From Escherichia coli (GTDB lineage Bacteria; Pseudomonadota; Gammaproteobacteria; Enterobacterales; Enterobacteriaceae), in NCBI RefSeq assembly GCF_030013595.1, contig NZ_CP122768.1: DNA of 64,000 nucleotides; one strand, written 5' to 3'. Position numbers: made by a program. Shown piece after piece: positions 21,001 through 24,000 of this stretch; position 1 is the first letter of the stretch, and each line of letters opens with the position of its first letter.

Positions 21001-24000
21001 TGACGCTTGCCGAGTCCGGAGAACGAAAAACCGCAGTGGACAAATTATTAATGAAGCCCCTGTACCAGCAGGAGATGCAGTTATATTCCAGATACAAAAG
21101 TGAACTGGCTGTCTGGAAAAACAAGGAAGAGCTTTTAAAGGCTCAGAAAAAAGCATTGTTGTCAAAACTGAATAAAGAACTCCGCAAAGGCGCGGATGAG
21201 TCAGAAACCCTCAGACAACTGGAAGTACTTCAGAAAAACAGTGCGGAAGAACCTGTGAGGTATAAATTCATTTTTAATGATGCCACGACTGCGGCAATTA
21301 AGAATCAGCTTTGTGGTAAATGGCGTTCAGTGGGTATTATGTCAGATGAAGCCGGTATTATATTTGATGGATATACCCTGTCTGAGTTGCCTTTTATTAA
21401 CAAAATGTGGGATGGCTCTGTATTGTCTGTGGACAGAAAGAATGAACCCGAACAGATGATTGAAAATGCCAGAATGACGTTATCCCTCATGGTGCAACCC
21501 GGTCTTTTTGACCGATATATGGAGCGAAAAGGTTCTGTTGCCAGGGACAGTGGTTTTCTTGCCCGTTGTCTTATCAGTAAACCTGCAACCACGCAGGGGA
21601 AACGCTTTATTAACGGAGCTGTGATTCCGGGAGGATCATTAACGGCATTTCATGAACGATTAATGGAACTGGCCAGAGGCAGTATTGAAAAATCCAGTGA
21701 GGATGAACGGTATTGTCTGCATTTTTCGCCTGAAGCGCAAAAAATATTTATTGAGCACTATAATGTTCTGGAGCAGGATTTATCCCCTTCCGGACCCTTA
21801 AGCCCGTTTCGGGGACATGTTTCAAAAAAAACAGAAAACATTGCAAGAATTGCAGCGTTATTTCAGTATTTCAGCTATGGTGAAGGGAAAATCTCTGCCG
21901 ATATCATGACGTCTGCTGTCGTAATAAGTTCGTGGTACACAGATGAATATAAAAAATTATTTGCGTTACCTGATGAATCTGAACTGCAGCAGAAGGACGC
22001 CGAGGAGCTGTTCGACTGGCTCATTGAGGAGTGCCGCGGAGAATGCCCACCCCGTGTCAGGAAAAATTATATTCTCCAGTGTGGCCCGGGTCGGTTCAGA
22101 AACAGGAAAAAACTGAACGCATTGCTGAACATTCTTGAATCTCAGTTCAGGCTTTCTGTCGTGCCGGAAGGAAAAACCATGTATGTTCTGCTTCCCCAGA
22201 TAGCCAGTTTAAAGTTGTCTGATGTCTCTGGTATTTTTACCTCGGGTTATCACTACAATAAGCTGAGAGCGAAGTAACCGGTGAGCAGTTTTTCTCCATT
22301 ATGCTTCAGACTTAGATGATTGATTATTATGGGGATTTCATCACCGATATTCAGATGTATGAATATCGGTGATGAACTAAAGCTCAGGAGCTGCGTGGTG
22401 GTGATGAATCAACAGGCATATAACTGATACCCGCCGGTCAGAAGTTCCAGCCTGCGACTTTCCTGTCTGCGTGCCCGCAGTCCGGCGTTCAGGTGCAGCG
22501 TGTGACAGAACGCACGGAGAGCGAAACGGCAGGCAGACAGGCCGTTCAGTCAGCCCTGGCACCCTGCCCGGATACCAGCTTCCCTGAAACAACTGGCATC
22601 AGGTGCGCTTATCGTCAACCGTTGTGCGGTATGCCAGGAGCACGTACTGATCCATCAGATCCGTCAGTGCTGCGCTCTGCTTCTGACGGTTGATGATCCA
22701 TTCCTCCAGCTCTTTTTCTGATTTCCGTTTCAGATTCTCCGTCCAGTCGTCAAGGCAGTTTCCGGTCATTAAATCAAGCCAGCAAAGCCAGACCAGTTTG
22801 AGGCGCAACTCCGTGCCACCAAACTGACGGAAGAGGCTGATCAGTTTATTTGCCAGCGAACGCTGCCTCAGACGTTCACATTCAGACAGGAGAATGCCTT
22901 CCAGCATCGGATGATGAACCAGCAGATGTTCACTGGTGCATAAATTCACTATCAGATCATCATCCAGGGGCGGCGTGGTCCGTTTGTCCGGACCATAAAT
23001 CAGCCGGTGCAGACTCTGGGGTACGATGGCAATCTCCGGTTTTTCACCATTGAATGACACCCACCCGGGCGTCAGATTATGGAAGTAGTAGATATTCGGA
23101 TGACACACGCCCCAGGATACGGCGTGCCGGGTGAAGCCGGTCAGCCATTTCTGGTAGCTTTCGTGGAGCAGCTCGTAACGGGTCTGATACTGTGGTTTCA
23201 TTTTCATATTCCTCACGGGGGATAACAGGCAGCAGAACGCCGCCGGCAGGCCGGAGACTGCGTCTGTTGCAGATGAACGGTTAAGAATTACGGACGGGAC
23301 TGTGCAATACGCGCCTGCAGCCAGGCTTCCACTTCGCTTTTCAGCCATCGGGAGCTGCGGCCCATTTTGATGGGCGCAGGAAAGTCACCATCCTTGATGA
23401 GTTTGTAAAACCACTTATCGGTCAGGCCGGTCAGTTGAGTGATAAATGCCATGTCGACCATCTGGTCATCCATCAGTGAAACTGGGGTGAGCATGAGAAT
23501 GTTCCTCCGGATGTTGTTAAACCAGCCGGTGTGGTCATGAAAACAACGCACCACCTTCACCGGCATAACAACCGGGGAGAAACGTAAAAAATAATCGGGA
23601 ATGTGACCGCCAGGAGATAAACGGGGAGGTTACGGTGGCTGAGCCGTACCGGTATGCCGGGTGGTTGTTACGAAACGATGCTTCCGCACGCGCGCGCGAT
23701 AAAGAAGGGATGATTTTCGTGAGGAAGAGGGGAAAACTGGCGTTCTGATAATTGCAGAGTTATTTACGGGGCGGTTACGATGGGGCAGACCGTGTCCGGT
23801 GGGCAGGCGACAGGTATCACCGATGGGATAAGACTGTCTGATTGGTATTATAAATATATAAGAGAGATCAAACACATGAGATCAAATACATGAGTTCATA
23901 TATGTGAAATAAACACGGTGAGTGTGATCAGTGGGCATGATGAGAACGCAGTAGCAACAGACTGCGCTATCCCTGATAGCTGGCGTATAACCCGCGTATA

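Follow-up and report, generated by a model that had tools for sequence, protein, structure and literature searches.

An unnamed gene with a structured leader follows alpA in genomic islands of Enterobacterales

Results

The gene downstream of alpA in a CP4-44-type island

We analyzed a stretch of 64,000 nucleotides of the Escherichia coli chromosome (NCBI RefSeq assembly GCF_030013595.1, contig NZ_CP122768.1; hereafter the window), which covers the asn-tRNA/cobUST region with a CP4-44-type genomic island carrying Ag43. Our subject is the gene that follows alpA on the same strand in this island, here called X, together with the spacer that separates the two genes (Table 1). A first-pass annotation, made from the sequence alone, had recognized alpA, had found 80 nt downstream a gene of ~202 aa that it could not name, and had suggested that this gene might be an AlpA-controlled effector. 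The recognition of alpA was sound: its product matched the Pfam families Phage_AlpA (PF05930; i-E 1e-8, residues 12–59) and HTH_17 (PF12728; E 9e-7), as well as the PHROG family 'excisionase and transcriptional regulator'. In a search of PDB sequences it matched the AlpA-family protein 8c3t (E 2.5e-4) and the excisionase TorI (1z4h; E 4e-4), and by sequence TorI appears to be about as near to it as any solved AlpA-family protein. Because tblastn of the window AlpA against CP4-57 of E. coli K-12 gave no match at E ≤ 1e-3, the gene is not the orthologue of K-12 alpA.

X has two in-frame ATG codons. The first, at 23207, gives the 202 aa and the 80-nt gap of the first-pass annotation; the second, at 23201, gives 200 aa and an 86-nt gap, and is the start chosen by the NCBI Prokaryotic Genome Annotation Pipeline (PGAP). 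An AAGGA or GAGGA box (GAGGAA in the window) is kept at the same position across 29 aligned homologous spacers. Because the homologues and this conserved ribosome-binding site fit the second ATG, we took 23201 as the start of X. In UniProt the gene is entered as 'Aec62' in a longer form, an open reading frame (ORF) of 249 aa that starts at 23348 and overlaps alpA. That entry (Q5K5T0), from an island of avian pathogenic E. coli, is the same protein as X, with 100% identity over the aligned model; the 'aec' ORF numbering is, we presume, that of the selC-associated island AGI-3 of strain BEN2908. A full-text literature search found no paper discussing Aec62, and nothing relevant for WP_000804452 or PDB 8C3T.

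X is a conserved gene of Enterobacterales

DNA matching the alpA-X pair was present in 3550 of 5426 complete E. coli genomes (65%), with a median of two copies where there was any, and alpA and X of the window are intact and identical to common E. coli alleles. The layout that the first-pass annotation had singled out is thus no peculiarity of the window, being standard in a large island family. Protein searches with X retrieved 204 database clusters at E ≤ 0.001, named 'hypothetical' or evidently spuriously, and many of the database entries are partial. Full-length relatives measure 174–204 aa, with identity down to 28%. Those at 55–65% identity (195–200 aa) come from Salmonella, Klebsiella, Yersinia, Hafnia, Serratia, Pantoea, Cronobacter and Citrobacter; Escherichia, Providencia, Photorhabdus and others also hold full-length relatives. 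Of all the full-length relatives, a few lie at 28–36% identity.

A scan of one genome per species yielded 38 X loci, all in Enterobacterales apart from two in metagenome-assembled genomes labeled 'Bacillota bacterium' (locus L030) and 'Clostridiales bacterium' (L033). Both of these loci have an enterobacterial island backbone, with 94–98% protein identity to Klebsiella, and since their island genes are typically enterobacterial, the labels are probably binning errors. To judge from these sequences, the X family is restricted to Enterobacterales. X occurred in 1 of 50,697 phage records, 9 of 72,556 plasmid records and 3 IMG/VR contigs. Because most of the plasmid records exceed 800 kb, most are probably mislabeled chromosomes, and given its near-absence from all three collections, we rejected X as a phage or plasmid gene. 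Pairwise dN/dS values of 0.06–0.26 (Nei-Gojobori, 12 pairs), together with its full length, showed that X is a real gene under purifying selection and not the decayed fragment that the first-pass annotation had allowed for.

Some islands hold a second, divergent X paralogue (~32% identity), placed in tandem or after Zn-ribbon and UCP030791 genes. The most distant relative found, an X-like gene on an IMG/VR contig (L059; 25% identity), keeps the motif G-V-L-I-S-E-C-x-R-L; it is divergently oriented, 1.8 kb from an AlpA-like gene, and is the sole clear exception to the same-strand linkage described below.

X belongs to the backbone of the island

We placed reference proteins on 56 related loci to map the context of X. 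One of the 38 species-representative loci starts too near X to be judged, leaving 37 that could be assessed. In 34 of these, alpA lies directly upstream of X on the same strand, with a spacer of 65–117 nt (mostly 94–107 nt); in two more, only a Zn_ribbon_11 gene intervenes, so that alpA is upstream on the same strand in 36 of 37. The remaining locus is decayed and lacks alpA. Every metagenomic locus examined likewise had alpA upstream of X on the same strand, and relatives of X at ~30% identity showed the same arrangement. One clade has the order alpA, two Zn-ribbon genes, UCP030791, X.

The usual layout consists of two diverging parts: a left block with DUF932, a WYL regulator, a YeeP-type GTPase and a ~300-aa ORF, and a right module of variable order, in which alpA and X are accompanied by a Gp2-like Rep-type gene and by Zn-ribbon genes. 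The constant module is made up of alpA, X and the Gp2-like gene, with or without Zn-ribbon and UCP030791 genes. Homologues of the Gp2-like gene beside alpA-X matched PF23343/PF11726, and the tblastn map agreed; other genera keep this gene in the same module as alpA-X, most of them directly beside the pair, and the window copy is on the opposite strand. The Zn_ribbon_11/DUF7828 genes follow the Gp2-like gene in the window and stand between alpA and X in some other genera, indicating that gene order in the module is fluid and its membership constant. Past the module the cargo varies, comprising type I restriction–modification, BREX, VgrG or fimbriae, and a P4-type integrase is found at the far end of some loci. 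Because the module is constant while the genes beyond it vary, X is a backbone gene at the edge of a variable region and not cargo. It showed no homology to a backbone protein of established function.

CP4-57 of K-12 is alike in that an AlpA-family gene heads a same-strand module with a Gp2-like YfjJ/YagK protein, and it belongs to the same island type, with a P4-type integrase, YeeP/YfjP GTPase, DUF932, antirestriction, RadC and a CbtA-like toxin-antitoxin block. It differs in the gene after alpA. The first-pass annotation had remarked that a DUF3987 gene usually follows alpA on the same strand in P4/CP4-like elements, and CP4-57 agrees, with alpA, yfjI and yfjJ on one strand. In the window, by contrast, the DUF3987 gene runs towards X from the opposite strand, and X, which is unrelated to YfjI, takes the position that yfjI has in CP4-57. 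X is absent from CP4-57, CP4-6 and CP4-44 of K-12. Outside E. coli, no YfjI homologue was found within 8 kb of X-type loci; among the loci examined, YfjI stands next to X only in those of E. coli type (L001 and L057), and its convergence on X is a combination specific to E. coli in this set.

Predicted structure and conserved residues of X

X is a cytoplasmic, mostly helical protein. Its AlphaFold2 model, computed with a 28-row alignment, reached a pLDDT (predicted local distance difference test) of 87.8 and a pTM (predicted template modeling score) of 0.86, and runs from a long N-terminal helix through a short helix, a beta-hairpin, a further helix and a loose loop (residues 72–92) into a seven-helix bundle. 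The motif G-[VI]-L-[LI]-S-E-C-x-R-L is invariant, and L-C-W is also conserved. Residues P63, G104, L106, S108, E109, C110, R112, L113, L122 and C142 are invariant; those that are nearly so include Y18, Q19, H43, R135, W143, W155, W170 and Y188. A catalytic Cys-His pair, which we considered, was weakened as an idea by a large E. coli cluster (P0008, 1188 members) in which His43 is Gln. The median isoelectric point (pI) is 6.7 for X and 9.5 for AlpA.

Searches of Pfam, NCBIfam, PHROGs, PADLOC and PDB sequences with X, as a single sequence and as a profile, gave no match, and no family among the defense models of PADLOC-DB 2.0 was hit at E ≤ 0.1. No helix-turn-helix (HTH) or winged-helix family was found in X by sequence or by fold, and hhalign comparisons with the island proteins YfjH, YagM, YagN and a 304-aa neighbor were negative. 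A profile search of a large protein collection brought more members of the family; the 120 top matches listed bore no informative names, and none had a domain fused to X except for one transposase read-through. Foldseek of the model against AFDB50 returned family members only, including Q5K5T0, and no characterized fold. The first-pass annotation was thus right to leave the gene nameless, and the predicted fold of the family appears to be unmatched among the structures searched. Database names such as 'malate transporter', 'secretoglobin family protein' and 'transposase' (the last from a read-through fusion) look spurious, because X is soluble and helical and has no matching domain.

A covarying hairpin in the leader of X

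The alpA-X spacer of the window contains a two-tier hairpin in the 5' leader of X. A covariance model (R1) built on 15 sequences scored this copy at 35.3 bits (E 2e-8), and a search of 862 kb with R1 gave 36 matches at E ≤ 0.005, one per locus, each immediately 5' of X and on its strand. R1 found no copy in the K-12 islands, including CP4-57. The inner stem has the form TCCG-N5-CGGA; the longer outer stem varies in sequence among clades, and the length of the spacer is conserved. In the alignment, which was fitted to R1 and hence leans towards the structure, 84% of cells are paired against 34–50% with slid partners, the covariation score is 0.259 against at most 0.107 in slid controls, and none of 500 shuffles came up to the values of the real alignment. 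The inner stem is closed by G-C, C-G, A-U or U-G. At L045, with a Zn-ribbon gene between alpA and X, it is X that the hairpin adjoins. Divergent X paralogues have a stem-loop at the equivalent place, and the L008 copy has one of its own; folding also covered the stretch 5' of the L022 copy, taken from an approximate start. Folding z-scores at the other loci ranged from −1.8 to −4.4.

Numerous G-U pairs on the sense strand make the structure strand-specific, so that it is more likely to act as RNA, or as the same strand in single-stranded DNA, than as a double-stranded operator. The hairpin does not look like a canonical intrinsic terminator, because the U-run lies inside the 3' arm and the terminator scan called nothing in the spacer. 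No Rfam family scored above its gathering threshold; the only overlap was with the Glutamine-II riboswitch, at 16.6 bits (gathering score 33, E 0.73).

No promoter is detected between alpA and X

In Pseudomonas aeruginosa, AlpA is a Q-like antiterminator; just downstream of alpA come a terminator and the target promoter, in which the binding element is placed between −35 and −10 (PMC7969949). The resulting alpA-PalpB(ABE)-tB-alpBCDE cassette resembles alpA-X in having a PF05930 gene upstream on the same strand and a stem-loop between the genes (PMC7969949, PMC9371919). It differs in its promoter before the target, where none was detected in the alpA-X spacer; perhaps in its intrinsic terminator, where the X hairpin, with the U-run inside its 3' arm, was not called as one; and in governing lysis genes, which X is not. 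In the PDB sequence search, the window AlpA did not match P. aeruginosa AlpA at E ≤ 1.

We found no sigma-70-like promoter in 22200–24300, and within 140 nt upstream of the hairpin in 29 loci (the window and 28 related ones) the best match was 7/12, at inconsistent positions. The control by AlpA that the first-pass annotation had proposed therefore gained no support. Since no promoter was detected between the genes, one alpA-X transcript with an intercistronic structured element is the simpler reading, in which co-transcription is inferred.

Other features of the island

The remaining features of the window are given in Table 1. The YfjI-family gene matched PHROG 2373 'DNA helicase' (E 3e-82). 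No T-run flanks the inverted repeat between its 3' end and that of X, and the terminator scan made no call there; the repeat may be a shared transcript end of the two genes, and for want of a T-run on either side is not a classical bidirectional terminator. The Hha/YmoA-family ORF is annotated as an intact 49-aa protein in one genome and as an N-terminally truncated hha pseudogene in another. The yeeP gene of K-12 CP4-44 is a pseudogene, as opposed to the intact YeeP-type gene here, and the whole yfjI-X-alpA-Gp2 segment is gone from K-12 through IS2/IS5 insertions. The island has no integrase in the window. Its cobU-proximal part is decayed and includes, besides the interrupted ISL3 transposase, fragments of a gamma-glutamyltransferase, of a TonB receptor and of IS66/IS4 elements, as well as a PfkB kinase pseudogene; a small metabolic block is intact.

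Table 1. Features at and around alpA-X. Positions refer to the window unless a related locus (L number) is named.
Feature	Position	Strand	Length	Remarks
X	22599-23201	minus	200 aa	PGAP WP_000804452.1 'hypothetical protein'; UniProt 'Aec62'
Ribosome-binding site of X (GAGGA)	23210-23214	minus		8 nt before ATG 23201
Two-tier hairpin	23218-23277	minus		within the 86-nt alpA-X spacer, 5' leader of X
alpA	23288-23494	minus	68 aa	winged-helix regulator/excisionase type; PGAP WP_000957424.1 'helix-turn-helix transcriptional regulator'
YfjI-family gene (DUF3987, helicase-like)	20793-22277	plus		converges on X; PGAP 'YfjI family protein'
Perfect inverted repeat	22337-22353 / 22360-22376		17 nt	6-nt loop; lies where X and yfjI converge, between their 3' ends
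Hha/YmoA-family short ORF	24253-24402	plus		in the 1.7-kb gap from alpA to the Gp2-like gene
Inovirus Gp2-like / YagK-YfjJ family gene	25217-25786	plus		rolling-circle Rep-like; PGAP 'inovirus Gp2 family protein'
Zn_ribbon_11/DUF7828 genes (two, overlapping)	26046-26447 and 26435-26842	plus		from PGAP, Pfam on homologues, and tblastn map
Ag43	15245-18520	minus		
YeeP-type GTPase	18692-19564	minus		intact
Decayed cobU-proximal part	27126-37600			
ISL3 transposase	27126-28745			internal stop; in the decayed part
Small metabolic block	29157-31974			intact; phosphotriesterase-related, DMT transporter, glutamine amidotransferase
Hairpin copy, L013	9922-9982			
Hairpin copy, L023	2728-2788			
Hairpin copy, L045	7924-7973			about 30 further loci also have copies
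X paralogue pair, L008	7273-7848 and 8001-8525			
X paralogue pair, L022	7995-8588 and about 11028-11588			
Second partial X copies, L035-L038	~100-150 nt past the first copy			
X-like gene, L059	7959-8561			IMG/VR contig

Discussion

We set the probability at roughly 45% that X acts in the life cycle of the island, co-expressed with alpA and tuned by its leader hairpin. The functional role is argued from genomic position, and our gene-level statements on X are much firmer. X is a backbone gene of a family of tRNA-targeting, P4-integrase-type genomic islands of Enterobacterales and makes up with alpA a two-gene unit, in which alpA is followed by a spacer of ~100 nt with the structured leader and then by X. 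On this account, transcription of X would most likely start from a promoter upstream of alpA, and the hairpin would most likely set the amount of X relative to AlpA through partial termination, RNA processing or stabilization. If the two genes are co-transcribed, as inferred, X would be made whenever the excisionase/regulator of the island is expressed, and it could then serve as an accessory to excision, post-excision replication or mobilization, together with the Gp2-like Rep and the Zn-ribbon proteins. We judged a role in the life cycle likelier than one as cargo or effector because X sits in the YfjI slot, beside Rep-like and Zn-ribbon genes.

The AlpA side of this proposal has precedents. 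In enterobacterial islands, proteins of the AlpA family serve as recombination directionality factors (PMC8844411), and by sequence the window AlpA falls in the same group as two such factors, SEN1998 of ROD21 (PMC8844411) and TorI of KplE1 (1z4h). This likeness covers AlpA alone, no X-like neighbor having been described for those systems. Islands with a similar core are mobile in Pseudomonas: the tmRNA-site (transfer-messenger RNA) islands I23, I44 and I55 resemble the X islands in their core of integrase (IntY), AlpA, inovirus Gp2-like protein and RadC, in their many unannotated core ORFs, in carrying defense systems as variable cargo and in lacking conjugation and virion genes (PMC12595487). 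They differ in their host, homologues of X having been found in Enterobacterales only.

Several observations weigh against the life-cycle proposal. Consensus promoter scans may miss real promoters, for example weak ones. The hairpin copy of the window is weak (z −0.9), with a mismatch in the outer stem, and neither Providencia nor one metagenomic clade has the hairpin. In a model of an AlpA-linker-X fusion (27 paired rows), the AlpA half was well defined (pLDDT ~88–93; helix-helix-strand-strand-helix, the order of a small winged-helix fold), and the whole, with a pTM of 0.61, looked like roughly two independent domains; this is a weak negative, and we rejected an AlpA-X complex, since no interface was indicated. 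Allele combinations point the same way. AlpA proteins are 74% identical within X clades and 72% between them, where X itself drops from 64% to 32%; some locus pairs share ~90% of AlpA and 33% of X, and in reverse pairs X is 93–98% and AlpA 71–74% identical (shuffled pairs: L004/L052, L037/L050, L020/L021 and L036/L039). To judge from these comparisons, the shuffled alpA alleles argue against a specific AlpA-X partnership. Since alleles are shuffled and adjacency is kept, recombination separates the two genes, and the pattern implies that such exchange is frequent, possibly at the conserved spacer. The adjacency of alpA and X fits a positional or regulatory link and not a lock-and-key complex or a toxin-antitoxin pair. 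Finally, the island of the window has no integrase and is littered with insertion sequence (IS) fragments and pseudogenes, yet both alpA and X have stayed whole in it, so that X may be of use to the host or work independently of mobility.

A bolder form of the life-cycle proposal, which we hold to be rather doubtful, would make X and its hairpin an unrecognized core function of AlpA/Gp2-like islands, with X as the founder of a new fold family needed for excision, replication or mobilization. X could then be, for example, a specificity or accessory factor of the Gp2-like Rep, or could exploit a helper element; the hairpin could work as RNA, in switching or as a processing site, or else as a single-strand DNA origin.

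An effector of the kind suggested by the first-pass annotation would target phage or host, for instance in abortive infection or anti-defense, and would be switched on once AlpA is present. What holds of that suggestion is that X is real, unnamed and tied to alpA (36 of 37 loci); as an effector under AlpA control we consider it unlikely. In its favor, defense cargo (type I restriction–modification, BREX) stands right beside the module, P. aeruginosa AlpA switches on a downstream lysis operon (PMC7969949), the near-neutral pI of X is unlike that of a DNA binder, and its intactness in a decayed, integrase-less island is what a host-useful gene would show. The invariant polar cluster S-E-C-x-R, with near-invariant His43 and Arg135 and with Cys142, could form an active or binding site, but His43 is Gln in cluster P0008. 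Moreover, X has no PADLOC match and belongs to the invariant backbone, whereas defense genes vary and the cargo starts beyond the module; neither a promoter nor a canonical terminator cassette was detected in the alpA-X spacer; and its dN/dS is low and steady, unlike that of many arms-race genes.

X could instead be a nucleic-acid-binding regulator that sets the on/off state of the island by binding its own leader hairpin or island promoters. This too is improbable: the median pI of X contrasts with the basic AlpA, neither sequence nor fold revealed an HTH or winged-helix family, and some clades that keep X lack the hairpin.

If alpA-X were a type II toxin-antitoxin pair, alpA would encode the HTH antitoxin and X, downstream of it, the toxin of ~200 aa. 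The order and sizes of the genes would suit this, and such modules (CbtA/CbeA) are already present in these islands. It is nevertheless very unlikely, since the spacer of 65–117 nt is structured instead of being a short or overlapping junction, recombination freely reassorts alpA alleles and X clades, no AlpA-X complex is predicted, some X copies lack an adjacent alpA (those after Zn-ribbon/UCP030791 genes, or second paralogues), and conservation is much higher in AlpA than in X, contrary to what co-evolution of a pair would give. That X is a functionless ORF, left by decay or arisen by chance, as the degraded surroundings (IS elements, pseudogenes, no integrase) and the many partial database entries might suggest, is already refuted by its full length, its identity to the PGAP protein of thousands of genomes, its low dN/dS, its confident predicted fold and its conserved ribosome-binding site.

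The island type and AlpA were known, and the protein had been deposited as Aec62 and WP_000804452.1. New here are an Enterobacterales-wide X family with a predicted fold that appears unmatched, a conserved alpA-X unit in place of alpA-yfjI, the covarying leader hairpin of X, and the free recombination of alpA and X alleles. The family merits a profile model, and its spurious database names merit correction.

Most E. coli genomes contain more than one CP4-type island, and such islands bring with them adhesins, toxin-antitoxin modules and many anti-phage systems. Because it is one of the few genes regularly found beside the regulator AlpA and has no name, domain or recognizable fold, X is a natural choice for dissecting the life cycle of the island genetically, and its conserved leader hairpin provides a second, easily mutated handle. 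The related AlpA/Gp2-like islands of Pseudomonas are mobile and rich in defense genes (PMC12595487), which makes the unnamed core genes of such islands worth testing. If X does serve a core function, studying it would help to show how CP4-type islands, so common in E. coli, move.

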